A DNA stretch of 64,000 nucleotides from Candidatus Nomurabacteria bacterium (lineage in GTDB: Bacteria > Patescibacteriota > Minisyncoccia > Phycocordibacterales > UBA9973). The DNA is taken from the NCBI GenBank assembly GCA_943350875.1, contig CALRAL010000001.1, positions 68,992 to 132,991 of the forward strand, read 5' to 3'. The translations under genes and the position numbers were made by a program. Under the pieces are notes generated by a model that had not been told where the DNA came from, made no database searches, and worked only from the letters and a program-made list of their open reading frames with translations. This document shows, piece after piece, positions 1-61,469 of this stretch; positions within the stretch are counted from its first letter, which is position 1, and each line of letters begins with the position of its first letter.

Positions 1-2266
1 CATTGGAGGTTTGGCGCTTCATGAAGGTAAAATTGCTGAGATGAAAACAGGTGAAGGAAAGACGAATGTTGCTACTTCGCCACTTTATTTAAATGCATTG
101 ACTGGACTCGGTACACACCTTATCACTGTAAATGATTATCTTGCACGTCGTGATGCGGTGCTGATGGGGCAAGTATACAATTTTCTCGGACTTTCTATCG
201 GTGTCATAAATTCGCAAAATGTTTCTTATTTGTACGATCCATCTCATAAAGAAGAAGACAAAGAGAGAGATACAGTGGGAGAATTCAAAATTGTCTACGA
301 TTTTTTGAAACCGTGTAGCAGAAGAGAGGCATATGGCGCGGATATTACTTATGGCACGAATCATGAATATGGTTTTGATTATTTGCGAGATAACTTAGCT
401 AATTCAAAGAATGATCTAGTACAGAGGGGGCATTATTTCGCTATAGTAGATGAAGTGGACTCTATTTTAATAGATGAAGCTCGTACTCCACTTATTATTT
501 CTTCTCAAGCAGGAGATTCTGAGGATTTTTATATTAAATTTTACCAAATTGCTAAACAATTGAAACGAGATGTTGATTATGAAGTAGATGAAAAATTAAA
601 AGCCATAACTCTGACAGATATAGGTATTACCAAAGCTGAAGGTTTACTCGGGGTGGACAATATTTATACGGAAAAAGGCATAAAATACGTGCATCATTTG
701 GAGACCGCGGTGAAAGCTCAGGCTATTTTCGAACGGGACAAGGATTATGTGGTTAAAGAAGGCGAAGTCATAATTGTGGACCCTTTTACAGGGCGACTTC
801 AGCCGGGACGACGTTGGTCTGAAGGAATACATCAGGCCATTGAAGCAAAAGAAGGAGTGAAGATAGAGAAAGAAACCCGCTCTTCTGGATCTATTACTTT
901 TCAGAATTATTTTAGATTTTATAAAAAACTCTCTGGTATGACGGGCACGGCAGAAACCTCTGCAGAAGAATTTTTAAAAGTGTATGGGCTAGATGTGATA
1001 GTGGTCCCTACGAATCGCCCTGTGATCCGTGTTGATCACAATGATCTTATTTTTCAGACAGAAAAAGGTAAATTCCAAGCCATTGCTAAAAAAGTAAAAG
1101 AATTAAATTCTAGAGGTCAACCAGTTTTGATCGGTACTATCTCAATTGAGAAAAATGAATTTCTCTCTATGTATTTAAAGCAAGAAGGTGTACAGCATAT
1201 TATTTTGAATGCTAAAAATCATGAAAAAGAAGGTGAGATAATTGCTCAAGCAGGCAAGAAAGGAGCTGTGACTATCGCTACAAACATGGCAGGGCGTGGA
1301 ATCGATATCAAACTCGGAGGGAATCCTATAGTTGAAGAAGAATATCAAGCGGTGAAAAATGCAGGTGGGCTTTTTGTCCTCGGCACTGAACGTCATGAAG
1401 CTCGCAGAATAGACAATCAGCTCCGAGGGCGTTCTGGCAGACAAGGGGATCCAGGAGCGACACAGTTCTATGTGTCTCTTGAAGATGATTTGATGCGAGT
1501 GTTTGGTTCAGACAAAATGAAGACAATGATGGGCAGATTTGGTATTCCGGAGGATATGCCTATCGAGAACAGGTTTATTGGGAAGTCTCTTGAAAGTGCC
1601 CAAGCAAAGATTGAGGGATTTAACTTTGATGCCCGCAAGCATACTCTTGAGTATGATGATGTGATGAATCATCAGAGAAAAGTCACTTATGAAAGACGTC
1701 AAAAAATGATGTTGGGAGAAAAAGAAGTCATAGAGAATCTTCTAAATGAAATTTCACTTGGCAACGAGGAGTCAGAGAAAATTATTGCAGACAAGAAGGC
1801 AGAATTAGGAGAAAGTGCATTTTATGACACTGTACGTAGGATTGCTCTTTATACCAACGATACTTTGTGGATAGAACACTTGGAAGCTATGGATTATTTG
1901 CGTTCATCGGTAAATTTGCGAGCCTATGGACAACATGAGCCAATTGTGGAATATAAAAAAGAAGGTTTGAAAATGTTTAAAGAAATGGAAGAAGTATTCA
2001 AAGAACAAGTTTTTGCTCTCGTAAAAACTATCAATAAACCAGCCAAGATGGAAGATGAACCAGTTCCGAAAGAGATATTGATAACTAGTCATAATGAACC
2101 TGAAGAATTTAGTGACACTGGGAAAAAAGTGGGTCTGCCTGCGCAGGTAGGTCGTAATGACCCTTGTCCTTGCGGGGCAATTAATCCAGCCACGGGTGAA
2201 GTTTATAAGTATAAAAAATGTGGACTCATAGACGCTCCACAACATAGGAAATCTTTAGTTAACTAA
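1..2266 (+). CDS. secA: Preprotein translocase SecA, 5'-truncated by the window edge. The reading frame is already open at position 2. It has a C-terminal CPCG...C zinc-binding tail.
   Basis: Translation carries SecA motor motifs (ALHEGKIAEMKTGEGKT; TNMAGRGIDIKLGG) and the C-terminal CPCGAIN...KCG SecA zinc finger. Confidence 0.95.
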   Translation, partial: IGGLALHEGKIAEMKTGEGKTNVATSPLYLNALTGLGTHLITVNDYLARRDAVLMGQVYNFLGLSIGVINSQNVSYLYDPSHKEEDKERDTVGEFKIVYDFLKPCSRREAYGADITYGTNHEYGFDYLRDNLANSKNDLVQRGHYFAIVDEVDSILIDEARTPLIISSQAGDSEDFYIKFYQIAKQLKRDVDYEVDEKLKAITLTDIGITKAEGLLGVDNIYTEKGIKYVHHLETAVKAQAIFERDKDYVVKEGEVIIVDPFTGRLQPGRRWSEGIHQAIEAKEGVKIEKETRSSGSITFQNYFRFYKKLSGMTGTAETSAEEFLKVYGLDVIVVPTNRPVIRVDHNDLIFQTEKGKFQAIAKKVKELNSRGQPVLIGTISIEKNEFLSMYLKQEGVQHIILNAKNHEKEGEIIAQAGKKGAVTIATNMAGRGIDIKLGGNPIVEEEYQAVKNAGGLFVLGTERHEARRIDNQLRGRSGRQGDPGATQFYVSLEDDLMRVFGSDKMKTMMGRFGIPEDMPIENRFIGKSLESAQAKIEGFNFDARKHTLEYDDVMNHQRKVTYERRQKMMLGEKEVIENLLNEISLGNEESEKIIADKKAELGESAFYDTVRRIALYTNDTLWIEHLEAMDYLRSSVNLRAYGQHEPIVEYKKEGLKMFKEMEEVFKEQVFALVKTINKPAKMEDEPVPKEILITSHNEPEEFSDTGKKVGLPAQVGRNDPCPCGAINPATGEVYKYKKCGLIDAPQHRKSLVN

Positions 2267-3522: not shown

Positions 3523-3562
3523 TTTATAAAATATAAAGCATATTACATGTGCTATAAAGTAA

Positions 3563-3594
3563 TGCGTTCGTCTTATTTTGTAGTATGTGTGGTT
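3563..3594 (+). promoter_or_regulatory. Second copy of the TGCGnTCGTCTT-TTTGTAGTAT promoter/operator motif
   Basis: aatgcgttcgtcttattttgtagtatgtgtgg, upstream of the 3625 CDS. Confidence 0.4.
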
Positions 3595-3624
3595 TTGTGG
3601 TAATATATAGAGTATAAAAATGAT

Positions 3625-4149
3625 ATGGAAAATGGGGATAAAAAAATTATTCTTTTTGTATGTAAGGGCAATATTCATCGTTCTGCTATAGCAGAACAAG
3701 TTTTCAAAAAAATTTTAAAGGAGAATCAATTGGATGACAAAATCGAAGTTATTTCGAGGGGCATTCAAGGTTCTGTTTATTCAAAACCAACATTATTTAA
3801 AAATATTACACAATACGATAAAGTATGGGAAACGGTAGAACCGTCATTGAAGGAATTTAATATTGATATTACTAAACATAAAGCGAAATCTATTACTAAA
3901 GAAATTGCAGATAAAGCTAGTATTATTATTACTTTTGATAAAGTGATTTTTTCAGATCATGAAGATGCACTTATTAGGCAATTTTCACACTTACAATCTA
4001 AAATACATTTTTTGTCAGAATTTGAAGGGTCAAAAGAAGAAATTTCAGACTGTGAAGGAATGAATTTGGAGCAACACAGAAAAATTACAAAAAAGATTTT
4101 TGATATTTTAAATCAACACTGGGAAAAAATAGTTGAATATGTTACTTAA
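3625..4149 (+). CDS. Low-molecular-weight protein tyrosine phosphatase / ArsC-like (LMWPc)
   Basis: N-terminal CX5R P-loop: ILFVCKGNIHRSAIAE. Confidence 0.75.
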   Translation: MENGDKKIILFVCKGNIHRSAIAEQVFKKILKENQLDDKIEVISRGIQGSVYSKPTLFKNITQYDKVWETVEPSLKEFNIDITKHKAKSITKEIADKASIIITFDKVIFSDHEDALIRQFSHLQSKIHFLSEFEGSKEEISDCEGMNLEQHRKITKKIFDILNQHWEKIVEYVT

Positions 4150-4158
4150 AAAACTTTT

Positions 4159-5445: not shown

Positions 5446-5448
5446 ACT

Positions 5449-9872: not shown

Positions 9873-10039
9873 GGACAGGGGACCCACACGTTTCTTAAAA
9901 TTGTCTTGTCTAGCTTTTCTTACCAACACTCACTAAATTGCTCATATTTATACTATTTTTGTCAATGTTCATATCTTAGAATATCCTTATTTTACAAGCT
10001 ATTTTGTATTTGACAAGGGGTAAAAATGTTGTCTAACTA

Positions 10040-10068
10040 TTGACTTTTAAATCAGAATATGCTAGTAT
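10040..10068 (+). promoter_or_regulatory. Sigma-70-like promoter (TTGACT-17-TAGTAT)
   Basis: ttgacttttaaatcagaatatgctagtat in the 270-bp intergenic region after murC. Confidence 0.45.
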
Positions 10069-10145
10069 GTACTATGACCTTGTTATAGGCGTAAAATCCT
10101 AAAAACAAGGTCGTTTCAGTAAACACTGAAATAACAGTTACGAAG

Positions 10146-10805
10146 TTGGTGGAGCTAAACCACCATAATATGCAAAACAAAAAATTAATACGGTTTGTGG
10201 AATCTTTTATCCTTTTGCCGTTTATGAGTGTATCAATGCTTGTTTCGAGCTTGCCTCAAAATAACGTTGATATTACGAACTCACCACAAGTTGTATTGTC
10301 GCAAAAATTAAATACAAAAGCCTCAAATCTATTTGCTTTTAACCAAGCAGTAGATGAAAAGGCTAAAACCGAAGTTTTGAGGGCGGAAGCCATTGATGCT
10401 TATTTCAGGGCGAAAGAAATGCCACTTCTAGGGACAGGTATGAAGATGGTCCTTGAAGCTGAGAAGAACGATCTTGATTGGAGGCTCTTGCCGGCTGTCG
10501 CTATTCGTGAGTCTACGGGTGGTAAATTTGACTGTCAGAATGTTGATAACAACCCTTTTGGTTGGGGTTCTTGTAAGATTGGTTTTAAATCCCTCGATGA
10601 GGCTATTGAGACTGTTGCTCGTAACCTAGGTGGTAACAATCCAAGCACAGCTCGACGCTATGATAATAAAACTACCAAACAAATTCTTCGTGCGTATAAT
10701 CCGCCTTCTATCGTGCCTCGTTATGCCGAGCAAGTGATGTCTATTATGAAAGATATTGGAGACGCTGATTTAGGTGTTCCACAAGTTCCAAACATTTATA
10801 GCTAA
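10146..10805 (+). CDS. Secreted/membrane-anchored protein, possibly lytic-transglycosylase-like
   Basis: N-terminal hydrophobic segment; AVAIRESTGGK...NPFGWG weakly resembles an SLT domain. The call is weak. Confidence 0.35.
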   Translation: MVELNHHNMQNKKLIRFVESFILLPFMSVSMLVSSLPQNNVDITNSPQVVLSQKLNTKASNLFAFNQAVDEKAKTEVLRAEAIDAYFRAKEMPLLGTGMKMVLEAEKNDLDWRLLPAVAIRESTGGKFDCQNVDNNPFGWGSCKIGFKSLDEAIETVARNLGGNNPSTARRYDNKTTKQILRAYNPPSIVPRYAEQVMSIMKDIGDADLGVPQVPNIYS

Positions 10806-12008
10806 ATTGATAGGTGTGCCTTCTAGAGCGAAATAATGCAGATCAATGAAGGGTAGGGAATTACATTCTATGATACCCCATTTTTGGAGGTCTGGATCTT
10901 TGGTTGGATCTTCTATAATCAAATCAAATCCGGCTACTGGTACACTTACTATCCCGCCCGCTTTTTTAAAAATCTGATGCATTTTAGGATGTACTTCAGG
11001 CAACATTTCTTTTGTATATCCGCCGTACATCCGGCCTGTTTTCCCAGTCAGGTTTATAGTTTTATCTTTAGATAAAATACTTTCTAGTGTATAGCCCTCT
11101 CTTTTTATAAAATTAATTAATTCATCATTTATTGAGATGTCGGATAGTCTTTCATTATGATTTTTATTTTTCTCTTGTATTAGTTCCTTTATATTTTTTG
11201 TCCCATCTCCTGTGACTTTTGGTGGATCACCACGAAAGAACCCTACTAATTTATTTTCTATAACCGTTGCCCTATATACAGATCCATATAAATGTTCTTG
11301 GATGACCACAGAGTTTGTAATTAATCGAGCTGAATTAAATGCATACTCCAATTCCTCCTTGGTATTTATATTGGTGGTGGTATGTCTTTGCCTTGAACCT
11401 AGTTTTGGTTTTATGATTACTGGTTTTTCTAATTCTTTAAATGCTTTTAGTGTTTCTTTGAAATTTTTAGCTTCTCTGGTTTTTGGAGCTGGTATACCTT
11501 TGTCAGTTAATGCTTTCGCTAGGATTAATTTGTCATCAAGCCAGCCATATCCTTTTTGTGAAAACCATGGGGGAATGGGCAAGCTTTGAAAATAGAAAAA
11601 TTTATCATTTATTTTTGCTCGGTAATGATCGATACATTTCCCGAATACCTTTACTTGTTGCATCAATATTCCACGCCTTTGTGCTTCTTCCCAGATCATT
11701 TTTGATCTTCCAGTGGAAGCCTTTTCTATATCGTCGTTGTATTTTACTATGCCAATAATATGCAGAAAGTTATGTAAAATTTTTTCAATTGAGCTCGCGA
11801 TATTATTCCATTTATTATTTTTTAATATTTTAGAAAATACTTCGTCTATCTTACCCATAGTATCATCTAGAATACTGGAAACAAGTAAAAAACGGTGATT
11901 GACAACACTTGTCCCGCAGGCATCGCATATTTTTTTATTTGTTTCTGCCCTGTTCATTTTTTCTGAACTTAAAAACAAAAAACCAAAGAAATCATTTAGG
12001 TTTCCCAA
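10770..12008 (-). CDS. ATP-grasp domain protein (cyanophycin-synthetase/RimK-like)
   Basis: PVIIKPKLGSRQRHTT...YRATVIENKLVGFF...GFDLIIED...IIECNSLP, an ATP-grasp fold pattern; N-terminal CxxC. Confidence 0.55.
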   Translation of the reverse strand: MGNLNDFFGFLFLSSEKMNRAETNKKICDACGTSVVNHRFLLVSSILDDTMGKIDEVFSKILKNNKWNNIASSIEKILHNFLHIIGIVKYNDDIEKASTGRSKMIWEEAQRRGILMQQVKVFGKCIDHYRAKINDKFFYFQSLPIPPWFSQKGYGWLDDKLILAKALTDKGIPAPKTREAKNFKETLKAFKELEKPVIIKPKLGSRQRHTTTNINTKEELEYAFNSARLITNSVVIQEHLYGSVYRATVIENKLVGFFRGDPPKVTGDGTKNIKELIQEKNKNHNERLSDISINDELINFIKREGYTLESILSKDKTINLTGKTGRMYGGYTKEMLPEVHPKMHQIFKKAGGIVSVPVAGFDLIIEDPTKDPDLQKWGIIECNSLPFIDLHYFALEGTPINLAINVWNLWNT

Positions 12009-17147: not shown

Positions 17148-17170
17148 ATGTCAAAGACCGTCTTTGACAT
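17148..17170. repeat. Left terminal hairpin palindrome of the IS200-like unit
   Basis: 11-bp arms with a 1-nt centre; the tnpA stop codon lies inside it. Confidence 0.8.
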
Positions 17171-17798
17171 CAAAAATTAGTGTTTCTTTTATGAAACTTT
17201 CTTGATCTCCAAAAGTCGATAATAATAGTTCTTTATTTATTATCGATAAATTTCTGTTATTAGCGAAATCATCATAACTATTCCACAAATGATCTGATGG
17301 ATGTTTTACAATTTTATCTTTTACTGGATTCATGTGTATATAAGTCGATGTCCACATTAATTGTGGATTATTTTCTATTAATACAGATTTGAATTTATCT
17401 TGGAATATGTGCCCAACTCGTTTGTATTTTTTATTTATATATTTTACATAACTTGTGCAAAGTTTTGAAATCAATTTTGAAACGGATATATCTCCAACTT
17501 GTTCAATAAGTAGATGAAAGTGATTAGGCATGAGACAGAAAGCATGCAGTTTAAAATTGTTTTTATTTGTTTCAGTAATCCTAATTCTAGAGTAGGGCAT
17601 TGAAGTTATTTTTTCTTTATTTAGTTCTTCTTCTGTAAATCCTAGACATAATCCAAGTCTAAAGAGAAAAGCTTTGTAATCTTGCTCGTCAAGAAATATT
17701 TTTTCCTTATTATTGCCTCTATTATAAACATGAAAAATATGTCCGGAGGCAAATTTTTTGTAATCTCTGTTATTTATAGATACAGTATAGCATGTCAA
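17151..17798 (-). CDS. IS200/IS605-family Y1 (HUH) transposase TnpA / REP-associated tyrosine transposase-like
   Basis: SGHIFHVYNRGNNKEKIF N-terminal motif, HUH motif LMPNHFHLL, and C-terminal catalytic-Tyr block YIHMNPVKDKIV...W.SY. Confidence 0.8.
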   Translation of the reverse strand: MTCYTVSINNRDYKKFASGHIFHVYNRGNNKEKIFLDEQDYKAFLFRLGLCLGFTEEELNKEKITSMPYSRIRITETNKNNFKLHAFCLMPNHFHLLIEQVGDISVSKLISKLCTSYVKYINKKYKRVGHIFQDKFKSVLIENNPQLMWTSTYIHMNPVKDKIVKHPSDHLWNSYDDFANNRNLSIINKELLLSTFGDQESFIKETLIFDVKDGL

Positions 17799-17814
17799 AG
17801 ACGGTCTTTGACAT
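17792..17814. repeat. Right terminal hairpin palindrome of the IS200-like unit
   Basis: Reverse complement of the left copy; it overlaps the tnpA start codon. Confidence 0.8.
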
Positions 17815-17822
17815 GAGGTTTG

Positions 17823-28250: not shown

Positions 28251-30941
28251 ATGCCACCGCTAAACAAATTCACAACTAAATCAAAGGATGCGATAAAAAA
28301 GGCCCATGAGCTTGCTATTGAGCGTGGGGTAAATCATGTTTCATCTGTGCATTTGCTTGCAGCGTTACTGCTACAAGATGAAAGTATGGTGAATTCAATA
28401 CTAGACAAGATGGAGATAGACACAATGCTTCTAACTGATTCTGTATTAGAAGATATCGAATTACCTGAGTCTAGAAGTACTTTGTCTCCAGCGTATCAGA
28501 TATATCTTAATCCTGACCTGGCACAAGTGATAGAGCATTCTGTAAAATTGGCTGAATATATGAAAGATGATTTTGTCTCTACTGAACATCTTTTTATCGC
28601 TATTTTAGAGATAGCCAGTGAAGCACGAGATTTACTTATTCGTTTTAAAATTAATAAAGATATTGTAATTAAAATCTTAGAAGAGCTTCGTAGCCAAAAT
28701 ATTACAGATGTTTCAGAACCAAAAAAGTTCAAACTTCTTTTGAAGTATACTCGTAATCTTACAAAACTGGCTCGAGAAGATAAATTAGATCCTGTGATTG
28801 GGCGTGATATTGAGATAATGCGTATAATGCAGATACTCTCTCGTCGTACTAAAAATAATCCTATTTTGATAGGGGAAGCGGGTACTGGGAAAACTGCAGT
28901 AGTAGAAGGTTTAGCTCTGCGTATTGCTAAAAATAATGTGCCTGAATCTTTAAAAGAAAAAGAGCTTGTTTCCCTAGATTTAGGTTCTCTAATTGCTGGT
29001 ACAAAATATCGCGGAGAATTTGAAGAAAGATTGAAAGGTATAATGAAAGAGATCGAAAGAGGAGATGGAAAAATTATTTTATTTATCGATGAGATACATA
29101 CAATAGTAGGAGCTGGTGGGGCGGAAGGCACTCTCGATGCTTCAAATATGTTAAAGCCTGCACTTTCCAGAGGAGAACTTCGTGCGATAGGGGCTACAAC
29201 TTTGCGAGAATATCAAAAACATATCGAGAAAGATCCTGCTCTTGCAAGACGTTTCCAGCCAGTTTATATTGATGAACCTAATATAGATGATGCTGTAGCT
29301 ATTCTTCGCGGATTAAAAGAAAAATACGAGCTTTTCCATGGAGTACGCATTACCGATGATGCGATAGTTTCTGCGGTAAATTTATCTGCTAGATATATTA
29401 CCAATAGGTTTTTGCCGGACAAGGCTGTGGACTTAATAGATGAAGCTTCTTCGTCTTTAAAAATAATGCTAGAGAATAAACCACAAGTTTTAGAAGAGGC
29501 ACATATAAAAATAATGCGTTTGGAGATCGAGAAAGAAGCTTTAAAAAAAGAAATTTCTGTGCCAGATGTAGATAAGGAAAAAGAGAAAGAAATAAAAAAT
29601 CGTATTAAAGACATAGAAAAAGAGATAGGAAATTTGCATGAGAAAACAAAAGAATTAGAACTCAAATGGCAAAATGAAAAGACTACTGTGGCTGAAATTA
29701 GAGTTATTAAAAAAGAGTTAGAAACTATGCGTCTAGAAGCAGAAAATGCTGAGATGCGGGCGGATTTGACTAAAGCAGCAGAAATTCGTTATGGAAAAAT
29801 CCCAGAATTTAAAAAAGAACTAGAAATAAAGCTTTTACGTTTAAAGAAATTGCAAAAATCACGAAGAATCTTAAAAGAAGAAATCACCGCTGAAGATATA
29901 GCCGAAGTGGTGGCTCGTTGGACTGGTATACCGCTCGTAAAAATGCTGGAAGAAGAGCGTGCAAAATTAGAAAGGATGGAGAAAGAATTAAATAAAAGAG
30001 TCATAGGTCAAGATGAGGCCGTGAAAAGAGTCGCAGATGTAATTCGTCGTTCTCGAGCTGGTATTTCTGATCCAAACAGGCCCATCGGTTCTTTTATATT
30101 TTTGGGTCCGACTGGAGTAGGTAAGACAGAGCTCACAAAAGCCTTGGGGCAGTTCATGTTTAACGACGATAAAGCAGTTATCAGGGTAGATATGTCTGAA
30201 TATATGGAAAGACATTCTGTGTCTAAATTAATTGGTTCTCCACCGGGGTATGTGGGATATGATGAAGCAGGACAATTAACTGAGCTTGTTCGACATAGAC
30301 CATATGCGGTAGTACTTTTTGACGAGATAGAAAAAGCGCACCCAGAAATTTTCAATATGCTTCTCCAAGTGATAGATGAAGGTAGATTGACTGATGGGAA
30401 GGGTAGAGTGGTGAACTTTAAAAATACTATCATTATTTTAACTTCAAATATTGGTTCGCAATTTATTGAAAAGATGGAATCTATCGGATTCTCTAATAGT
30501 TCTGAAAAAGAAGATTATAGTAATATGAAAGCAAAAGTTTTGGATTCCTTGAAAGATCATTTTAGTCCAGAATTCTTAAATCGTTTAGATGAAACCATTG
30601 TATTTGATATTTTGTCTCCGGAAGCAATAATGGAAATAGTAAAATTAAGAATAAAAGTAGTGGAAGACAGACTCATGGCTAAAGGTATTAATTTTGAGAT
30701 TTCAAATGATGCTATTTCTTATTTGGCAAAAGAAGGATATAACCCGCATTATGGTGCAAGGCCTTTGAACAGATTAATCCAGACTAAAATCTTGAATCCT
30801 GTGGCCTCATATATTATTTCAAATGATGTAAAAAAAGGTGATAAGATTTCCGTGTCTGTAAAAAATAACGAATTGATTATTGAAAAACAAAAATTGAAAA
30901 TCAAAAGCCCTATCCACATCCGCCAACATTCTGAGGTGTAA
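28251..30941 (+). CDS. clpB: AAA+ chaperone ClpB
   Basis: Two AAA modules ([15 protein letters not shown]; [14 protein letters not shown]), long middle coiled coil, Clp N-domain. Confidence 0.93.
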
Positions 30942-38252: not shown

Positions 38253-39146
38253 ATGGAAGGATTTTTCTCATCTAAAAACAGTTTCTTGTATATACTTGGT
38301 ATTTTGTTTTTCTTGTTGATTTTTAACTCTTTATTTTTTAATGCTCCAAGATATTTCCCAATAGGGGATATTGTAAATATACAAGAAGGTTCAAGTCTCC
38401 ACCGTATTTCTAAATATCTAAAAGACGAGAAGATAATTGGTTCTAGAATGGCTTTTGAAGCTTTTGTGATTATGTTTGGGGGGGAGAAACATATAGTTCT
38501 AGGAGACTATTTATTTGAAAAGAAAATGCCTGTTTTTGATATAGCTTCGCGTCTTACACATGGATATCACAACTTAGCACCAGTCAAAGTGACTATCCCT
38601 GAGGGTTCAAATAACAAAGAAATAGCTGATATTTTTGGCACTAAATTGTTAAAATTCAATAAAATTAAATTTTTGACTGAGATAAAAGATAAAGAGGGCT
38701 ATCTTTTTCCCGATACTTACTTTTTTTCTACTACAGACACAGAAAAAGAAGTTATAAAAGTTATGAAGGATAATTTTAATAAAAAAGTTCCTCTTGTTTT
38801 TTCTACAATAAACATTAGTGATGTAAAGAAAAAAGATATCATAATAATGGCCTCGATAATAGAACGTGAAGCGGAAGGCGATAATGACAGAGCTATAATT
38901 TCTGGAATTCTTTGGAAAAGATTTAAAAAAGGGATGTTGTTACAAGTAGATGCTGTACCCGAGACATATAAAACAAAAGGATTACCAAAAAATCCTATAT
39001 CTAACCCTGGGCTCGAAGCCATAGAAGCGTCTATTCATCCAAAAGTCTCATCTTATTTTTTCTACTTACATGATAAAGCTGGTGTAGCTCATTATGCTGT
39101 CACTTTTAATGAACATGTTTCAAATAAATTAAAATACTTAAAATGA
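38253..39146 (+). CDS. mltG: Endolytic murein transglycosylase MltG (YceG-like)
   Basis: N-terminal TM; LLQVDAVPETYKTKGLPKNPISNPGLEAIEASIHP. Confidence 0.75.
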   Translation: MEGFFSSKNSFLYILGILFFLLIFNSLFFNAPRYFPIGDIVNIQEGSSLHRISKYLKDEKIIGSRMAFEAFVIMFGGEKHIVLGDYLFEKKMPVFDIASRLTHGYHNLAPVKVTIPEGSNNKEIADIFGTKLLKFNKIKFLTEIKDKEGYLFPDTYFFSTTDTEKEVIKVMKDNFNKKVPLVFSTINISDVKKKDIIIMASIIEREAEGDNDRAIISGILWKRFKKGMLLQVDAVPETYKTKGLPKNPISNPGLEAIEASIHPKVSSYFFYLHDKAGVAHYAVTFNEHVSNKLKYLK

Positions 39147-40342
39147 AAATAAAAAAAACTGTTTTTGTGGGGATGTCAGGGGGAGTAGATAGTGCTGTGT
39201 CAGCAACTTTACTTAAAGAACAAGGGTATGATGTAGTGGGTGTTTTCATCCGTACTTGGCATCCAGAATTTTTAAAATGCAATGAAGAAGAGGAGAGGCT
39301 AGATGCTATGCGTGTGGCAGCATTTTTAGATATTCCTTTTTTGACTTTTGATTTTGAGAAAGTGTACAAGAAAGAAGTGGCTGATTATATGATTTCTGAA
39401 TATAAGGCTGGTAGGACTCCGAATCCAGATGTGATGTGCAACAAAGAAGTGAAATTCGGCGCATTTCTCAAAAAAGTTGTTTCGATGGGTGCGGATTATG
39501 TGGCGACTGGGCATTATGCACAAACCAATAAATACACAGGGTTCCCCTGTGTTACACAGGGGAACCCTGTGTATTTAAACCTCGGGAAGCTCAAAATAGA
39601 AAGGGAAAACTTTGGTTTGTTAAAAGGAAATGATGTTACAAAAGATCAGAGTTATTTTCTTTGGATTTTAAAACAAGAACAATTAAAAAAGATTTTGTTT
39701 CCAGTTGGACATTTAAAGAAAACAGAAGTTCGTAAATTAGCCAAGAAATTAAATTTACCTGTGGCAGAGAAAAAGGATAGTCAAGGGATTTGTTTTTTGG
39801 GAGCTATTGATTTGAAAGAATTTTTAAAACATTACATAAAAGAAAAAAAAGGTGAGGTATCTAATACAGAAGGTGAGAAGATTGGATTTCATGACGGGGT
39901 AGTTTTTAATACTTTAGGAGAAAGACATGGTTTTACTATTACCAAGAAAAGTCCTAATGATGGGCCTTATTATGTAGTAGGTAAAGACTTAAAGAAGAAT
40001 ATTTTATACGTGAGTCAAGACAAAAACCATCTTGCAAAGAGTACGGATATTTTTTTACTAAAAAATTCCTCGTGCTCACGCCAGTCGCTCTCGCAAGTCT
40101 CTTTGCAAGATGGTTTTTGTCTTTGTTTAAGAGGCACTAATTGGATTTCAAAGATCCCAGAATTAAATAAAGATTACACTGCACAGATTCGTTATCATGG
40201 TAGTTTCTTACCTTGTAGAATAAAAGTTCTAAAAGGCGACAAAGCTGAGATTCACTTTAAAGAAAATGTGTTAGTTGCCCCTGGTCAGTCTTGTGTAGTT
40301 TATGATAAAGATGTTGTTCTTGGGGGAGGAATAGTTGTATAA
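39143..40342 (+). CDS. mnmA: tRNA 2-thiouridylase MnmA (contains an in-frame palindromic insert)
   Basis: VFVGMSGGVDSAVSA PP-loop, GHYAQ, KDQSYFL. Confidence 0.88.
   Translation: MKIKKTVFVGMSGGVDSAVSATLLKEQGYDVVGVFIRTWHPEFLKCNEEEERLDAMRVAAFLDIPFLTFDFEKVYKKEVADYMISEYKAGRTPNPDVMCNKEVKFGAFLKKVVSMGADYVATGHYAQTNKYTGFPCVTQGNPVYLNLGKLKIERENFGLLKGNDVTKDQSYFLWILKQEQLKKILFPVGHLKKTEVRKLAKKLNLPVAEKKDSQGICFLGAIDLKEFLKHYIKEKKGEVSNTEGEKIGFHDGVVFNTLGERHGFTITKKSPNDGPYYVVGKDLKKNILYVSQDKNHLAKSTDIFLLKNSSCSRQSLSQVSLQDGFCLCLRGTNWISKIPELNKDYTAQIRYHGSFLPCRIKVLKGDKAEIHFKENVLVAPGQSCVVYDKDVVLGGGIVV
39533..39575 (+). repeat. 43-nt near-perfect palindrome, family B, in frame inside mnmA. It encodes YTGFPCVTQGNPVY.
   Basis: ATACACAGGGTTCCCCTGTGT-T-ACACAGGGGAACCCTGTGTAT. 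Confidence 0.85.
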
Positions 40343-52014: not shown

Positions 52015-52443
52015 ATGGATAAAGAAAAAAAGACTATAAAAGAAAAATATGTTGAGGCAATAGGTAGAAGGAAAACTTCAACTGCTCGGGTGCGACTTTT
52101 TGAATCTACGAAGGCAAATTTCGTTGTTAATGGCATAGATGCGAAAGAGTATTTCAAGACCGAAGAAGAGAAACGTCTTATCCAAGATCCTATCATAAAG
52201 GGTCTGCCCACTAGTAAAGCAGGACTCAAGTGGAGTGTAGAAGTAAAGATCTCTGGTGGGGGGATTCACTCCCAAGCAGAAGCTGTCAGACACGGACTTT
52301 CTAGGGCTTTTGTATTATATGATGCAGAACTTCGTGGAAGTATGAAATCATTAGGCTATCTAAAACGTGACCCAAGATCAAAAGAACGAAGGAAATTCGG
52401 TCTCAAGAAAGCTCGCAAAGCGCCTAAATGGAGCAAACGCTAA
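52015..52443 (+). CDS. rpsI: 30S ribosomal protein S9
   Basis: GGGIHSQAEAVRHGLSRA ... KRDPRSKERRKFGLKKARKAPKWSKR. Confidence 0.93.
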   Translation: MDKEKKTIKEKYVEAIGRRKTSTARVRLFESTKANFVVNGIDAKEYFKTEEEKRLIQDPIIKGLPTSKAGLKWSVEVKISGGGIHSQAEAVRHGLSRAFVLYDAELRGSMKSLGYLKRDPRSKERRKFGLKKARKAPKWSKR

Positions 52444-52456
52444 TTGATTAGCGTTT
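52435..52456. terminator. Perfect 22-nt palindrome overlapping the rpsI stop (terminator or operator-like hairpin)
   Basis: AAACGCTAATTGATTAGCGTTT followed by gttgcggttt. Confidence 0.45.
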
Positions 52457-52599
52457 GTTGCGGTTTCGTGCAAGAGAAAATTTCCGGTGCGAACGTTTTT
52501 TTAACGTGAGCTGGGAATAGCGGGGGATGTGGTCTGACCACATAATCAACCTTTGCAAGTCTATTTTAGAAATTTTTTGTTTTATGTTATATTACTCAT

Positions 52600-53238
52600 A
52601 TGCAACAAGATGAACCTGCCCGCAATGCTTTCAGCACAGCTGATGCAGGCGGGGAAATTAAAAAAGAGGAACAATTACCCGAAGAAAGCCCAGATTCCGA
52701 GGTTGTAGAGTTTGAATTCAATGAAGACGGGGAAGAGGATCTGAAAAAGACTTTAAAGAAGCTTCGGGCTGATTTGAAGGCTTGTAAAGCTGAAAAGGCA
52801 GAGTATTTGACCGGCTGGCAGAAAGAGCGAGCTGATTTTGTTAATTATAAAAAAGAGGAAGACGACAGGAAAACCATGTTTTCAGAATCAGTACGAGAGC
52901 GAATGCTCACTCGCTTTTTAAATGTGATGGATAGCTTCAATATGGCATTCCAAAACAAAGAAGCTTGGGAAAAAGTAGATGAGAACTGGCGTAAAGGTGT
53001 AGAATATATTCACAGCCAGTTCAACACTGTTTTTGAAGAATATGGAGTAAAAGAGATAGGTGAAGTGGGGGAGAGTTTTGATCCAAATATTCACCAGCCG
53101 GTAGAAATGATAAAAACCGACCAGAAAGATTCTGATCACAAAGTGGCTGTAGTTATCCAGAAAGGGTATAAACTTGGCGAGCGTGTTATCCGTCCGGCGA
53201 GAGTGAATGTTTATGAATATCATGAACAAAGAGAATAA
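52600..53238 (+). CDS. grpE: Nucleotide exchange factor GrpE (the N-terminus is built from a family A repeat)
   Basis: GrpE coiled-coil plus C-terminal beta domain; N-terminus MQQDEPARNAFSTADAGGEI. Confidence 0.85.
   Translation: MQQDEPARNAFSTADAGGEIKKEEQLPEESPDSEVVEFEFNEDGEEDLKKTLKKLRADLKACKAEKAEYLTGWQKERADFVNYKKEEDDRKTMFSESVRERMLTRFLNVMDSFNMAFQNKEAWEKVDENWRKGVEYIHSQFNTVFEEYGVKEIGEVGESFDPNIHQPVEMIKTDQKDSDHKVAVVIQKGYKLGERVIRPARVNVYEYHEQRE
52615..52653 (+). repeat. Family A GC-rich palindromic element at the grpE 5' end
   Basis: cctgcccgcaatgctttcagcacagctgatgcaggcgggg. Confidence 0.8.
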
Positions 53239-54922
53239 AACTTGTCAAAACTGTAAAAAAGATTTCACAATAGAACCTGATGATTTTTCATTTTATGAAA
53301 AAATAAAAGTCCCTCCACCGACTTTTTGTCCAGAATGTAGATTTCAACGTAGGTATGCTTGGAGAAATGAAATTACACTCTATCGAAGACCATGTGATTT
53401 GTGTGGAAAAAGTTCTGTTACAATTTACTCTCCAAAAAAATCTTATAAAGTATATTGTCCTAATTGTTGGTGGGGGGATGGATGGGATGCGAAGGAATCT
53501 TTTCAAGATTTTGACTTTTCACGTCCGTTTTTTGAACAATTTCAAGAACTTCAATTTAAAATTCCAAGAATAGCTCTTTTAACCAAAAATAGTGTTAATT
53601 CAGAATACACTAATCATTCAGGGGATAATAAAAATTGTTATATGTGTGTTTCTACTTTTTATTCTGAAAATATAATGTACTCAAATAATATTTGGGAAAA
53701 AGGGCAGGATTTATGTGATTGTACAATGGTGATAAAAAATGGAGTTTTGTCTTACGAATGTATAGATTCTTCTGATATTTATAATTGTCAGTTTTGTATA
53801 CTTTTAAAAAATTGTACTGATTGTTTTTATTGCTATGACTTGCATAATTGTCAAAATTGTTTTTTATCTTTTAATTTAAGAAACAAAAATTATATGATTT
53901 TAAATCAACAATATTCTAAAGAAGAATATTTTAAGAAAATTAAAAATTTTAATCTAAATTCCAATAATTCAAGACAAAATCTTTATAAGCAATTTTTAGA
54001 TTTAATGAAAAATAAAGCATTGCATAAATTTGCTATTATTGAGAAATCGGTAAATTCTTTTGGAAATATGCTTTATAATTCAAAAAACGCTAATCAGGTT
54101 TTTGACTCAGACCATGTAGAAGATACCAAATACGGCATAATACTACCTGGTGTCCAAAATTCGATGGATGTTTGCCATGTTGGTTTTAATTGTGAACTTA
54201 CCTATGAAAGTCATGCTATTGTAAGATCATCTCGTGTTTTATTTTCTCATTTATCCTATGATAATAATGATATTCAGTATTGTGATTCGTGTCATTATAG
54301 TGATAATTTGTTTGGTTGTTGTGGAATAAAGAAAGGAAGTTATATGATTTTTAATAAAAAATATTCCAAAGAAGAATATCTAAAGTTAAAAGAAAAAATA
54401 ATTGAACACATGAAAAGAACAGGAGAGTATGGAAATTTCTTTCCACCCAAACTTTCACCATTTGGCTACAATGAAAGCCAAGCTCAAGTTTATTTACCAA
54501 TGGCAAAAGAAAAAGCTTTATCTTTTGGTTTTAATTGGGAAGATGATATGCCCGGAACCCACGGAAAAGAAACTACGGATTCAAAAAATATATCGGATAA
54601 TATTTTTGAAGTTTTAGATTCCATAACTAATGAAATATTAAAATGTGAAGATTGTGGTAAAAATTACAATATAATTCTAGCAGAATTACAATTTTATAAA
54701 AATGAAAATATTCCTATTCCACATTTTTGTTACAAATGTCGTTATAAAAAAAGAATAGCATTAAGATTACCAAGAAAACTTTGGCACAGGTCTTGTATGT
54801 GTGATAAAATTGGTCATTTTCATGGAGATGATAAATGCAATGTAGAATTTGAGACGAGTTATGCTCCAGAAAGGCCAGAAATAGTGTATTGTGAAAAATG
54901 TTATCAGCAAGAGATTTATTAA
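53207..54922 (+). CDS. Large Cys-rich protein with tandem zinc-ribbon pairs at both termini (paralog 2 of 3); the start probably lies at ATG 53213-53219 and overlaps the grpE stop
   Basis: CQNCKKDFTIEPDDFSFYEKIKVPPPTFCPECRFQRR...LYRRPCDLC...VYCPNCWWGDGWD. C-terminus CEDC...FYKNENIPIPHFCYKCR...YAPERPEIVYCEKCYQQEIY. Confidence 0.8.
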   Translation: MFMNIMNKENKTCQNCKKDFTIEPDDFSFYEKIKVPPPTFCPECRFQRRYAWRNEITLYRRPCDLCGKSSVTIYSPKKSYKVYCPNCWWGDGWDAKESFQDFDFSRPFFEQFQELQFKIPRIALLTKNSVNSEYTNHSGDNKNCYMCVSTFYSENIMYSNNIWEKGQDLCDCTMVIKNGVLSYECIDSSDIYNCQFCILLKNCTDCFYCYDLHNCQNCFLSFNLRNKNYMILNQQYSKEEYFKKIKNFNLNSNNSRQNLYKQFLDLMKNKALHKFAIIEKSVNSFGNMLYNSKNANQVFDSDHVEDTKYGIILPGVQNSMDVCHVGFNCELTYESHAIVRSSRVLFSHLSYDNNDIQYCDSCHYSDNLFGCCGIKKGSYMIFNKKYSKEEYLKLKEKIIEHMKRTGEYGNFFPPKLSPFGYNESQAQVYLPMAKEKALSFGFNWEDDMPGTHGKETTDSKNISDNIFEVLDSITNEILKCEDCGKNYNIILAELQFYKNENIPIPHFCYKCRYKKRIALRLPRKLWHRSCMCDKIGHFHGDDKCNVEFETSYAPERPEIVYCEKCYQQEIY

Positions 54923-55333: not shown

Positions 55334-55870
55334 TTAATTTTTTATCGCTTCTAAAAAAGCGAGTCTAGTTTCTTCGTCTAATTTATCTGTAACTATTATC
55401 ATAAGTTCTGTAGTGAACCCCAAATCTTTTTTAATATTTATAAATAGATTTTCGTAAGGGTAAGGGGAGATCCAAGCAGAATTCTTTAAACATACAAAGC
55501 CAGCTTTTTTTAATAAATAACGAAGTGATTCACGTTCACTTTTTCTACTCTCTGGAATATCCAAAAGTATAATTCTCCAGAATCCGTCCCAGACAGTGTT
55601 CACTAGAGTAGTGTCATCTTCTAATTTCAAAGTATTTATTTTCTTTTTTCCTAGAGTTGTGAGGCGGGCATAGTTATTTTGCCCGGAATATGAGTTTTCC
55701 ACAAGTCCTGCCTCCCGGAGACTTTTTAAGGAGCGGGTAATAGCGTATCTAGCCCCCTCCTTGTTGAGGAGGGGGTTGGGGGTGGTGATTAGTTTTTCTT
55801 GCAATTCTGGCACAGAAACAGCTGTCTTTTCACCTAGTATTTTCAATATCTTTTTGGAATAGTTGCTCAT
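55334..55870 (-). CDS. PaaX-like winged-helix regulator (paralog of 2977-3522) carrying an in-frame GC hairpin insert
   Basis: WDGFWRIILLDIPESRKSERESLRYLLKKAGFVCLKNSAWISPYPY. Confidence 0.55.
   Translation of the reverse strand: MSNYSKKILKILGEKTAVSVPELQEKLITTPNPLLNKEGARYAITRSLKSLREAGLVENSYSGQNNYARLTTLGKKKINTLKLEDDTTLVNTVWDGFWRIILLDIPESRKSERESLRYLLKKAGFVCLKNSAWISPYPYENLFINIKKDLGFTTELMIIVTDKLDEETRLAFLEAIKN
55751..55786. repeat. Family C-like GC-rich hairpin inside the regulator CDS. It encodes TTPNPLLNKEG.
   Basis: CCCCCTCC-TTGTTGA-GGAGGGGG perfect hairpin followed by ttgggggtggtg. Confidence 0.7.
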
Positions 55871-55882
55871 TTGATTTGCTTG

Positions 55883-55937
55883 ACCCTATCGCTCGCGAGC
55901 GATAGGGTTGACATACTTACATCCTATCATATATACT
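55883..55937 (+). promoter_or_regulatory. dnaK promoter with a perfect 26-bp palindrome overlapping the -35 box
   Basis: ACCCTATCGCTCGCGAGCGATAGGGT then TTGACA-17-TATATA. Confidence 0.5.
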
Positions 55938-56042
55938 CTATTTGACAAGTATTTCGTGTTCGCGAAAAACTTGCAAAAGATTATAAGTAAGTATATACTA
56001 TGTAAAATTTAACAAAATTATAAGTTTAATAATTAAAAACAT

Positions 56043-57932
56043 ATGAAAATAATAGGTATAGATTTGGGTACAACAAATTCAGCTGTCGCTATCATAGAAG
56101 GAGGACAGCCAAAGATTATTGAGAATATAGAAGGGAACCGCACGACTCCTTCGGTTGTGGCTATCGCGAAAAATGGGGATAGATTAGTAGGGCTCCTTGC
56201 AAAAAGGCAAGCTGTGACGAATCCAGAAAATACTGTATATGGTATCAAGCGTTTTATGGGTCATAATTTTGATGATCCCGAAGTACAGAAAGATTTAAAG
56301 AATGCATCTTTCAAAGTTCAAAAATCAACTAATGGCGGAGTGGAAGTAAAAATAGGAGATAAGTGGATGCGTCCAGAAGAAATATCTGCGATGATTTTAG
56401 CGAAAATAAAAGCGGACGTAGAAGTTAAGACGGGAGAGAAGATCACTGAAGCAGTCATCACTGTGCCAGCGTATTTCAATGATGCTCAGAGAAAGGCTAC
56501 AAAAGACGCAGGACAAATAGCAGGACTCGATGTGAAGCGTATTATCAATGAGCCGACGGCTGCAGCACTTGCTTATGGTTTTAATAAAAAGAAAAATGAA
56601 AAGATAGTGGTGTATGACTTTGGAGGAGGCACATTTGACGTATCCGTGCTTGAAATAGGGGATGATGTTATAGAAGTAAAGTCCACAGATGGGGACAGTC
56701 ACCTCGGAGGTCGTGATATCGATCACAAGATCATAAATTGGATTGCGGAAGAATTCAAAAAGACTTCAGGAGTAGATGTACGTGGAGATAAACTTGCTCT
56801 TCAACGTCTTGATGAATCTGCAGAAAAAGCAAAAATAGAGCTTTCTACTGCCGTGGAAACTGAAATAAATATTCCATTTATTACTTCCACTCCACAAGGT
56901 CCTCAACACTTACTTTTGAAAATGACTCGAGCTCAACTTGAATCTCTTACTGATGAATATGTTTCTCGTTCCATAGAGATAACAAAGCGCGCGATGAGTG
57001 CTTCCGGTTTTAAAATGGAAGAAATGAATGAAATAATCATGGTTGGAGGTCAGACTAGAATGCCAAAGATCGTAGAAGAAGTGAAAAAGCTTTTTGGCAA
57101 GACTCCAAACCTTTCTATCAATCCCGATGAAGTCGTAGCTCTCGGTGCTGCGGTGCAAGCGGGAGTATTACAAGGAGATGTGCGCGACGTGCTTCTTCTT
57201 GATGTCATACCTCTTTCACTGGGGATAGAGACATTAGGAGGAGTGGCGACAAAGTTAGTTGAAAGAAATACAACTATTCCTTCTTCAAAATCCCAAGTAT
57301 TCTCAACTGCGGCTGACAATCAAACTTTGGTAGAAATACATATCGTCCAAGGTGAACGTCCTATGGCGTCTGACAACAAATCTCTCGGTAGATTTATTTT
57401 GGATGGAGTGCCACCTGCTCCTCGCGGTATTCCGCAAGTGGAAGTTTCTTTTGATGTGGATGCAAATGGTATCTTGAATGTGACTGCAAAGGATAAAGCT
57501 TCTGGTAAGACTCAATCTATTAAAATAGAGGCAAGTTCAGGATTAAAAGATGAGGATATTAAAAAGATGCAAGCAGATGCAGAAATACATGCTGAAGAAG
57601 ATAAAAAGAAAAGAGAAAATGTCGATATAAAAAACACTGCGGAGATGATCATGTACACAGCAGAAAAAGCTTTGAAAGATAATGATGCAAAAATTCCGGA
57701 AGATTTGAAGAAGACTGTAAATGATAAAATAACTGCTCTACGTGGTTTAAAAGATGGTTCAGACATAGAGGCTATTAAAAAGGCCACCGAAGAATTGTCT
57801 TCTGAAATGTCAAAAATCGGTGAAGCTATGGCAAAAGCTGGTGCTACTCCAGATGAAGGACCAGCTACTCCTCCTGAAGAACAACCAACTGAAGTCCGTG
57901 ATGCTGATTCCAAAGAAGAAGACAAGAAATAA
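56043..57932 (+). CDS. dnaK: Molecular chaperone DnaK (Hsp70)
   Basis: [36 protein letters not shown]... Confidence 0.95.
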
Positions 57933-59744: not shown

Positions 59745-61469
59745 ATGCAATCTGAGCCTAGAGTTTGTCAAAATTGTAAAAAAGAATTCACAATCGAATC
59801 AGACGATTTTGGATTTTATGAGAAAATAAAAGTTCCTCCACCGACTTTTTGTCCAAATTGTAGAGCTCAACGTCGAAATGCTTGGAGGAATACTTTTACT
59901 TTATATTCTCGAAAATGTGATTTGTGTGCAAAATCAGTCATTTCTCTTTATGCTCCAGATTCTGAAATAATAGTTTATTGTAATAAATGTTGGTGGAGTG
60001 ATAAGTGGGATCCAAAATCTTATGCTCAAGATTATGACTTTTCTAAACCATTTTTTGCGCAATTTATAGATTTTGTTAAAAAAGTTCCACACATTTCAGT
60101 AGTCAATGATAACGGGATTGCTAGTTTGAACTGTGAATATACCCATGATTGGTGGTTTTCAAAGAACTGCTATATGGCATTTTCTGGCTGGTATGTGGAG
60201 AATGTTATGTATAGTTATTTTATAACTGCTGGTAGAAATATTATGGATACTATGATCAATATGGCTGAATCAGAATACTTATATGAATGTATAAATTGTT
60301 CGCATGGTTATAATGTTAAATATTCACAATATGCTGGAGCTTGTATTGATTCTCAATTTCTTTATGATTGTCGAGACTGCTCAAATTGTTTTATGTCTTT
60401 TGGACTTAGAAATAAAAAATATTTTTTTAAAAATCAGCAATATACGAAAGGAGAGTATGAAAAAATATTAAATAGTTATAAACTTGAAACTTTTTCTGGT
60501 GTAAAAAAAGCGCAAGAAGAATTTGATAAACTCATTTTAAATTATCCTCGTAGGTATGCTTGGCATAAACAAAATAAAGATTGTTCTGGTGATGTGATTT
60601 CTTATAGCAAAAATACTAAAAACTGTTTCATTGCTAAAAGATGTGAGAATTGTAGATATTCAGAATATCCCACTAAGGACAAGGATTGTTATGATATAAC
60701 GATGACTGGTGAAACATCTGAATGTTATGAAGGAGTTGTTGTGGATCATTCGCAGTTAAACTTTTTTGGAATTTTCTCTGTTAAAAGTCAGGATATAAGA
60801 TATACGCAACATTGTCACTTTTCAAAACATCTTTTTGGTTGTGTTGCGCTTCGTAGTAATAGTTATTGTATTTTCAATAAGCAATATACAAAAGAAGAAT
60901 ATGATACTTTAGTAAGAAAAATTATTGAGCAAATGAATGAAATGCCTTATGTGGATAAAAATGGTTGTGAATATCGTTATGGGGAATTTTATCCAATTGA
61001 ACTTTCTTTGTTTGGATATAATGAAACTCTTGCATGTGAACAGATTCTACTTTCAAAGGAAGAAGCTCTAAATAAAGGTTATAAGTGGCAAGACAATTTA
61101 CAACGAACAACTAAGAAAGAGACATTATTACCACAAAATATTCCAGATTCAATTAAAGATATTAGTGATAATGTCATACAAGAAATACTTAGTTGTGTTG
61201 AATGTAAAAGGAATTATAAAATTGTTCAAAATGAATTAATTTTTTATAAAAAAATGCAGATTTCTATTCCAAGGAAATGTTTTTATTGTCGTCATGCAAA
61301 TAGAATAAAACACACAAATCCTTTTAAACTTTGGCATCGATCTTGCATGTGCGACAAAACAAATCATGGGCATGAAGGAAATTGTCTAAACGAATTTGAA
61401 ACAAGCTATGCTCCAGAAAGACCTGAGATAGTTTATTGTGAAAAATGTTATCAGCAAGAGATTTATTAG
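59745..61469 (+). CDS. Large Cys-rich protein with tandem zinc-ribbon pairs at both termini (paralog 3 of 3)
   Basis: CQNCKKEFTIESDDFGFYEKIKVPPPTFCPNCRAQRR...LYSRKCDLC...VYCNKCWWSDKWDP. C-terminus CVECKRNYKIVQNELIFYKKMQISIPRKCFYCR...YAPERPEIVYCEKCYQQEIY. Confidence 0.8.
   Translation: MQSEPRVCQNCKKEFTIESDDFGFYEKIKVPPPTFCPNCRAQRRNAWRNTFTLYSRKCDLCAKSVISLYAPDSEIIVYCNKCWWSDKWDPKSYAQDYDFSKPFFAQFIDFVKKVPHISVVNDNGIASLNCEYTHDWWFSKNCYMAFSGWYVENVMYSYFITAGRNIMDTMINMAESEYLYECINCSHGYNVKYSQYAGACIDSQFLYDCRDCSNCFMSFGLRNKKYFFKNQQYTKGEYEKILNSYKLETFSGVKKAQEEFDKLILNYPRRYAWHKQNKDCSGDVISYSKNTKNCFIAKRCENCRYSEYPTKDKDCYDITMTGETSECYEGVVVDHSQLNFFGIFSVKSQDIRYTQHCHFSKHLFGCVALRSNSYCIFNKQYTKEEYDTLVRKIIEQMNEMPYVDKNGCEYRYGEFYPIELSLFGYNETLACEQILLSKEEALNKGYKWQDNLQRTTKKETLLPQNIPDSIKDISDNVIQEILSCVECKRNYKIVQNELIFYKKMQISIPRKCFYCRHANRIKHTNPFKLWHRSCMCDKTNHGHEGNCLNEFETSYAPERPEIVYCEKCYQQEIY

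Follow-up and report, generated by a model that had tools for sequence, protein, structure and literature searches.

The 64-kb stretch of Candidatus Nomurabacteria DNA considered here (contig CALRAL010000001.1; GC content about 35%), hereafter the window, holds a small winged-helix regulator gene (55334-55870, minus strand, encoding 178 amino acids, aa) and, divergently transcribed from it, dnaK, the gene for Hsp70 (56043-57932, plus strand; PF00012, E-value 2e-244). Between the two lies a 30-bp dyad, ACAAGTATTTCGTG-TT-CGCGAAAAACTTGC (55945-55974, arms 55946-55973, centre 55959/55960), which we propose as an operator. Upon comparison of the window with related loci (labelled L and a number), the regulator emerges as a probable autoregulated repressor of dnaK that acts through this dyad. 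A preliminary description of the same DNA had proposed a non-canonical heat-shock operator system using the adjacent regulator, with a perfect 26-bp palindrome over the dnaK -35 box (55883-55908) and another palindrome upstream of grpE as its operators. The general idea finds good comparative support in a conserved dyad and conserved synteny, but both of the palindromes named are the wrong elements and grpE is not part of the system. Besides dnaK, the regulator gene has cutA and a P-type ATPase gene as neighbours in the window, with no paa genes nearby; dnaJ is not present in the dnaK locus. Among 42 loci taken from species-representative genomes for synteny and motif comparison, regulator and dnaK are divergent in about 36, while most of the others are truncated upstream of the regulator and two carry other DNA there; the divergent order is found in essentially every locus with enough upstream DNA. 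In the related loci grpE is frequently convergent, just downstream of the regulator.

Two sequence blocks are common to all of the loci, a promoter-like block (TTGACAT-N3-TATA-N3-TATCATATATACT) and the dyad, whose consensus is ACAAGTATTTCGYG-RY-CRCGAAATACTTGY and which lies between regulator and dnaK, 37 bp beyond the 26-bp palindrome. Across 40 aligned species seven dyad positions are invariant and mutually symmetric, the invariant G/C positions among them falling at 55956, 55958, 55961, and 55963 of the window, and in L038 both outer arms carry matched changes (CATCTAT...ATAGATG). When a symmetrised position weight matrix (PWM) of 30 columns was used for motif search, the window gave a single match, at 55945-55974, with a score of 42 against a maximum of 7 in 50 shuffles. 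Exactly one site was found in each of 41 of the 42 reference-genome loci, between regulator and dnaK wherever both are present, and no secondary or weaker site was found in 849 kb of related DNA. The dyad accompanies the regulator even where dnaK is not its neighbour (L004). A metagenome scan with the pattern ACAAGTNTTTNGYGNNCRCNAAA returned 120 stretches, and 79 of the 89 sites with a PWM score of at least 20 lie beside a regulator gene, dnaK, or both. A wider regulon was sought in the same scan and rejected: the 42 matches away from dnaK and the regulator lie almost all within open reading frames (ORFs) of unrelated contigs, lack the second arm, and are attributable to chance. The locus thus displays what is generic for a repressor and its operator, namely a conserved dyad that is co-located with a regulator gene and overlaps promoter elements.

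The regulator belongs to the PaaX-like superfamily, with an N-terminal winged helix followed by a Cas2-like PaaX_M domain (PF20803, E-value 3e-19, 69 bits versus a cutoff of 24), in agreement with the preliminary description of a divergent, PaaX-like winged helix-turn-helix protein. A weak HTH_20 hit is the only other Pfam match; neither PaaX_C nor a MerR domain was found in the protein by Pfam, and its Pfam matches do not place it in the HrcA family. Against TIGR02277, the PaaX equivalog model, it reaches 31.9 bits over residues 47-141 only, far from the cutoff of 264.55. An AlphaFold2 model built on 40 homologues shows the winged helix and then a beta-alpha-beta-beta-alpha-beta domain (mean predicted local distance difference test score, pLDDT, 77; predicted template modelling score, pTM, 0.43). 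Foldseek comparison of this model placed the PaaX structures 8a39 and 3l09 at the top and 3kfw at rank 13, followed by winged helices of the MarR and ArsR types. Searches of the Protein Data Bank by sequence and by profile gave no significant match, so that only the fold search pointed to PaaX. More than 2100 homologues are found at 57-75% identity, and every source name that bears a taxon is patescibacterial (Nomurabacteria, Paceibacterota, Minisyncoccia). In a profile search of 1.84 billion cluster representatives, 20 clusters were matched at an E-value of 1e-30 or below and 882 at 1e-10 or below, and the dnaK-linked proteins therefore form a tight subfamily within a broad family of about 180-195 aa. 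JGI labels the homologues 'PaaX', a label widespread in databases for these proteins, and the present result would correct this annotation as phenylacetate regulators.

Three promoters around the dyad were found independently by a promoter scan, and the recurrence of each was counted in 109 distinct contexts and compared with flank shuffles. The predicted dnaK promoter P1 (55908-55937, plus strand) reads TTGACA-18-TATACT with 11 of 12 consensus matches and its -10 box at 55932-55937, a reading equivalent to the TTGACA-17-TATATA noted at the outset; its pattern recurs in 91 of the 109 contexts versus 0.3 in the shuffles. Transcription from P1 is predicted to start near 55944, which would put the operator at about +1 to +30. 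On the minus strand, the predicted regulator promoter Preg (55948-55921) combines TTGTCA (55948-55943), a spacer of 16, and TAGGAT (55926-55921), so that its -35 box sits in the left operator arm; the pattern TTGTnn-15..18-TAnnnT-4..9-ATG recurs in 81 contexts versus 2.1. The ancestral ATG follows the Preg -10 box by 6 nt, and the regulator mRNA is therefore predicted to be leaderless in the relatives. The second predicted dnaK promoter, P2 (55971-55999, plus strand; TTGCAA-17-TATACT), has its -35 box inside the right operator arm and recurs in 67 contexts versus 10.7; its start is expected near 56006. About 40% of species do not have P2, and there P1 is the sole promoter and fires straight into the dyad. 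Leaderless layouts as such appear common in this lineage, the ATG coming 6-7 nt after a -10 box, often TATACT or TAATAT preceded by TG. Examples besides grpE and the regulator in relatives (corresponding to 55912-55926 of the window) include a divergent DUF4446/aminotransferase pair (L166-L172, near 900-960) whose start codons are only about 24 nt apart.

Taken as a layout, promoters and operator point to an autoregulated repressor, as PaaX itself is. A regulator dimer would most likely bind the dyad at 55945-55974, with the winged helix contacting DNA and the Cas2-like domain serving dimerisation. Given that the two outer arms each hold a -35 hexamer, on opposite strands, and that the left edge coincides with the predicted P1 start, one bound dimer could shut all three promoters: Preg would be blocked, giving autorepression of what is in most species a leaderless gene, P2 would be blocked by occlusion of its -35 box, and P1 would be blocked at +1 to +30. 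Stress would then lift repression, through heat lability of the repressor or through a need for free DnaK of the kind known from HspR; as to which signal brings about release, whether thermolability or titration of DnaK, we can only guess by analogy with HspR, HrcA, and RheA. More broadly, the chances appear about even that the Paceibacteria/Nomurabacteria class possesses an undescribed heat-shock repressor of this truncated PaaX-like kind, encoded by a leaderless mRNA and with a 30-bp operator holding a -35 box in each arm, which replaces HrcA and its operator at dnaK in genomes that are reduced. If so, a fourth protein family would join the known dnaK repressors (HrcA, HspR, and CtsR-type). 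Almost nothing is known of transcription control in the ultra-small, mostly uncultured Patescibacteria, and neither this regulator family nor heat-shock regulation in the candidate phyla radiation/Patescibacteria was treated in any paper we found. The comparative support for this regulator-operator pair is unusually clean, with more than 100 species, one site per locus, a base-resolution motif, and a central chaperone gene.

Other explanations for the conserved dyad have to be weighed against repression. The dyad might act as RNA, independently of the regulator, as a 5'-terminal hairpin of the P1 dnaK mRNA serving as a thermometer or stability element. With a P1 start near 55944 the whole dyad would be transcribed and would fold as the first leader helix, and CIRCE (controlling inverted repeat of chaperone expression), the operator of HrcA, has been reported to affect mRNA stability as well. 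Among 93 distinct operators, however, the paired columns vary independently and show no covariation. Pair 13/18 occurs as C-G 30, T-G 24, T-A 21, and C-A 18 times, pair 7/24 as A-T 38, A-A 23, and T-T 21 times, and wobble-type combinations occur at about the same frequency on either strand, T-G being about as frequent as C-A, so that pairing is retained on neither. Complementary pairs number only 7 to 14 of the 14 (mean 10.7), with primary sequence invariant at the symmetric positions, the folding energy of the leader is not unusual (z -1.3), and the dyad always travels with the regulator gene. Independent variation of the arms argues therefore for two equivalent protein half-sites and not for base-paired RNA, and on these pair statistics we reject the RNA-structure reading, which is very unlikely. 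About 46 bp separate the operator centre from the predicted P2 start downstream of it, and the right arm lies over the -35 box. Such a position would be compatible with activators of the class II type, and the regulator might thus activate P2, or act both ways, while repressing its own promoter. Against this, P2 already has near-consensus boxes at a spacing of 17 nt, P1 fires into the dyad, in the position of a repressor, in the species that do without P2, and PaaX is a repressor (PMC9493321); activation is accordingly unlikely. Distinctly unlikely, too, is the notion that the regulator has no role beyond autoregulation, or acts on something other than dnaK, and sits beside dnaK by chance, in a gene order that happens to be conserved. 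It can draw on L004, where regulator and operator stand opposite a membrane-protein gene instead of dnaK, and on several loci with another ORF between the operator and either dnaK or the regulator, but in over 100 distinct contexts the dyad overlaps elements of the dnaK promoters, it recurs at a clpB promoter (L144), and divergent genes that share an operator are the classic sign of local regulation.

The palindrome that had first been taken for the operator, ACCCTATCGCTCGCGAGCGATAGGGT at 55883-55908, is real: its two 13-nt arms are 100% complementary with no spacer between them (hairpin string CCCYRTCGCTCGCGAGCGAYRGGG), and its final base is the first T of the P1 -35 box, TTGACA at 55908-55913. 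That the adjacent regulator binds this element is nonetheless extremely unlikely. The palindrome is statistically striking, adjoins TTGACA, and recurs in L157 (regulator 66% identical) as a near-identical hairpin in the same position, with an A-T to G-C change that keeps the pairing. A highly conserved DNA-binding protein would, however, be expected to have a conserved site, and such a site exists 37 bp away, whereas the palindrome is missing from L045, which with a regulator 85% identical is the closest of the relatives that lack it, as it is from most of the roughly 110 loci compared, whose regulators are 57-75% identical. A duplication of TTGAC flanks it, in L157 as in the window, and the window's own hairpin turns up in L059, where it is flanked by CTAA on either side and lies immediately downstream of an unrelated gene (574 aa), next to the stop codon. 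Unrelated hairpins occupy the same position in other species, a second family in L005, L041, and L133 and a third in L051, L068, L106, and L151, one of them occurring twice in a single contig (L068); the TTGAC duplication also surrounds the hairpins of L005 and L041, and insertions of some kind are present at this position in about 20 of the 110 or so loci. Absence from L045 and most loci, duplication of TTGAC, and the copy in L059 together lead to the conclusion that the palindrome is an inserted repeat and not an operator. Judged by this sequence context, it represents one copy of a short palindromic repeat that is mobile or recombinogenic, with the flanking direct repeat and the presence or absence among close relatives that are typical of mobile repeats. 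That the most conspicuous palindrome of a locus should be a mobile hairpin and not its operator is a caution for the reading of single sequences. Several points still weigh against the autoregulated repressor acting through the dyad. The support is comparative throughout, and the literature yielded no paper on this regulator family; the AlphaFold2 model is of moderate confidence at the scores given and of a monomer only; the position of the dyad, at about -46 from the P2 start, is one that an activator could also occupy; grpE and clpB are without a site in the window and in close relatives, so that there is no broad heat-shock regulon; the link to heat comes solely from the identity of dnaK, plus one clpB case; and HrcA with CIRCE on groESL might exist elsewhere in the genome, the search having covered the window and related loci.

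In most loci the ATG of the regulator directly adjoins the promoter block. L045 reads ...GCTTGACATacatatatcatatcatatatactttaTTTGACAAGTATTTCGTGGTCACGAAAAGCTTGCAAAA, its TTGACAT being the reverse complement of the regulator's ATG TCA, in a single, uninterrupted GCTTGACAT. The window has GCTTGAC-CCTATCGCTCGCGAGCGATAGGG-TTGACAT instead, a 28-nt insertion in which TTGAC is doubled (left copy 55880-55884, right copy 55908-55912) and which lies exactly where the regulator start codon overlapped the P1 -35 box. The right copy regenerates this -35 box and preserves the old regulator ATG (reverse complement of CAT, 55912-55914). Since 28 nt shift the frame, the ancestral start codon (55914-55912) now opens a 15-codon upstream open reading frame (uORF; 55867-55914, minus strand; translation MSTLSLASDRVKQIK and stop), and the regulator has moved to a new start codon, which the TGA of the uORF overlaps (ATGA). 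Inside the uORF the hairpin has a predicted RNA folding energy of -19.1 kcal/mol (z -3.9). An intrinsic terminator was considered and rejected: the scan predicted no terminator at the palindrome, which sits between two divergent gene starts. The window has one copy only; no further copy was found in it at up to three mismatches, nor any in 100 shuffles. Perfect inverted repeats with arms of at least 11 nt number about seven in the 64 kb, and several of the others are terminator-like by sequence. REP-like (repetitive extragenic palindromic) and other miniature palindromic repeats resemble the element in being short, GC-rich, perfect intergenic hairpins with short flanking direct repeats, and likewise in having related copies at unrelated loci (L059) and a recurrently occupied insertion site. 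They differ in that here there is one copy in the 64-kb window and no transposase or RAYT gene was identified. The hairpin element that L068 carries twice in its contig (270-420 and 6505-6655) is about 115 bp long, with 26-nt terminal inverted repeats (CCCGTTAGAAGCAGGTC.CGGTC) around a divergent AT-rich core. Each copy adjoins a CAT start codon, which hints at a miniature mobile element with gene starts as its target.

In relation to known systems, the logic of a dedicated chaperone-locus repressor with an inverted-repeat operator is already familiar, while the regulator family and the operator sequence are new. HrcA and CIRCE, in Bacillota and many other bacteria, share with the proposed arrangement negative control of dnaK by a repressor whose long inverted repeat lies at the promoter or immediately behind it, a regulator gene within the chaperone locus, and an operator that for one promoter falls within the transcribed leader. 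They differ in that the regulator here combines a winged helix with a Cas2-like domain in 178 aa and does not have the HrcA fold, that the operator is a 13-2-13 dyad (ACAAGTATTTCGYG) as opposed to TTAGCACTC-N9-GAGTGCTAA, and that the regulator gene is divergent, not first in an operon, with grpE not covered. CIRCE was not matched at up to three mismatches in the window or in 1.26 Mb comprising the window and related loci (173 loci), a search that took in more than 110 dnaK, about 50 grpE, and 8 clpB upstream regions; its reported lack at dnaK and grpE in the window is thereby upheld. HspR and HAIR (HspR-associated inverted repeat), in Actinomycetota, Helicobacter, and Deinococcus, provide another dedicated, autoregulated dnaK repressor encoded in the dnaK locus, and the DnaK-dependent feedback of HspR is the best available model for how repression might be released here. 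HspR, by contrast, belongs to the MerR family, its gene closes the dnaK operon, and its operator is HAIR (CTTGAGT-N7-ACTCAAG); neither such a protein nor HAIR is present here. HAIR returned only four scattered two-mismatch strings in the 1.26 Mb, the one of the four that was checked (L005:603) lying about 3 kb from a dnaK start. Neither operator was found at dnaK in the window, and the two palindromes had been described as resembling neither.

The repressor PaaX is autoregulated, competes at divergent promoters with RNA polymerase, and has a box of the form TGATTC-N27-GAATCA (PMC9493321). In E. coli and Pseudomonas it represses the paa genes in response to phenylacetyl-CoA, and its winged helix and Cas2-like middle domain are homologous to those of the regulator described here. 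The latter is about 130 residues shorter (178 aa versus 305 aa for PaaX in 8a39) and without the C-terminal ligand-binding domain, and its site is a contiguous 13-2-13 dyad in place of the PaaX box, neither half of which (TGATTC, GAATCA) occurs in 55871-56042.

The extent of the regulon was judged from the other chaperone genes. At grpE (52600-53238) the dyad was not found by PWM in any locus, whether in the window, the related loci, or the 849 kb, and what the operator defines is therefore a dnaK-plus-regulator unit and not a dnaK/grpE regulon. The palindrome upstream of grpE, ATGTGGTC-T-GACCACAT, exists, although its position is 52527-52543 and not the 52526-52542 first given, which is one base too far left. 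It is not conserved as a palindrome: comparison of loci shows that only its right arm, TGACCAC, is shared (L014, L029), and then only in loci with an extra conserved element after rpsI, outside whose consensus structure the palindrome lies; it was rejected as an operator and as part of the system. The TTGCAA promoter proposed for grpE does not hold up either, TTGCAA at 52553-52558 being 29 nt from the only good -10 box and hence not a properly spaced -35 box. The scan instead found TTTAGA-17-TATATT with an upstream TG (52565-52593), and from the extended -10 box TGtTATATT with an ATG 6 nt on (52585-52602, plus strand) grpE is predicted to have a leaderless mRNA and no operator. About 15 related loci share this layout; upstream of grpE, relatives have the rpsI terminator followed by an extended -10 box from which the ATG is 6-7 nt away. 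At clpB (28251-30941 in the window) the dyad was found neither in the window nor in six close species fetched for clpB. In the distant L144, an operator-like dyad (GAAGGTTTTTGCG-AC-CGCAAAAAACTTG) followed by TTGTCA-17-TATAAT stands 85 nt upstream of clpB (3316-3436), with the -35 box embedded in an arm as at dnaK P2; apart from dnaK, no chaperone gene but this clpB was found with such a dyad. The distribution of sites supports a predicted regulon made up of the dnaK-plus-regulator unit with occasional recruitment of another chaperone gene.

Between rpsI and grpE, at 52430-52545 and also in L014, L029, and L015, runs a conserved element of about 110 nt that starts at the rpsI stop codon and has the grpE palindrome at its 3' edge. 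Its first hairpin shows three compensatory pairs and is followed by a second, multi-stem domain (GCGGTTTCGTGCAAGAGAAAATTTCCG...GAGCnGGAAATAGCGG). Rfam gave nothing credible for the rpsI-grpE spacer, and the element may be an undescribed structured RNA. On either side of the dnaK locus lies one of two large Cys-rich paralogues (53207-54922 and 59745-61469; 571 and 574 aa), which have many CxxC pairs and belong to no firmly assigned Pfam family. The last 32 nt of grpE are shared with the first of them, for which co-transcription with grpE is probable, and in L042 two such paralogues follow grpE in tandem.

Variation of the unit is seen in several relatives. In L112, a 14-kb contig, the whole grpE-regulator-operator-dnaK unit is present as two inverted copies (3157-5898 and 8359-11100), which may be an inverted duplication or an assembly artefact. 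L004 and L002 come from the same metagenome-assembled genome (nzgw476), which thus has two regulator copies, one opposite dnaK and the second (L004), with an operator of identical class and P2, opposite the membrane-protein gene; a paralogue or a strain mixture may be responsible. A small ORF of about 100 aa (MIDPKKVDFNQLPKKFCDGALGAF...) lies between operator and dnaK in L032 and L038 (also L002 and L023), where it would share dnaK regulation. The dnaK leader of L003, L005, L006, and L029 (with a variant in L007 and L040) contains after the operator a conserved GC-rich block of about 80-100 nt, not present in the window. Some of its changes look compensatory (for example TATAAAGCAATCTATCTGAGCTTGCTAGCTCAGCGAACTGCTCGG...GCAAGGCTTTCTAAAAAG), and the block may represent structured RNA in the leader. 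Elsewhere in the window, a perfect 49-bp palindrome with 24-nt arms (TAAATACACAGGGTTCCCCTGTGT-A-ACACAGGGGAACCCTGTGTATTTA, 39529-39577) lies within an mnmA-like ORF (39143-40342). One further palindrome, ATGTCAAAGAC-N-GTCTTTGACAT, is found at both ends of a 215-aa ORF (17151-17798, minus strand), at 17148-17170 and 17791-17815, and both copies contain ATGTCAA/TTGACAT, resembling the overlap of start codon and -35 box at the regulator.

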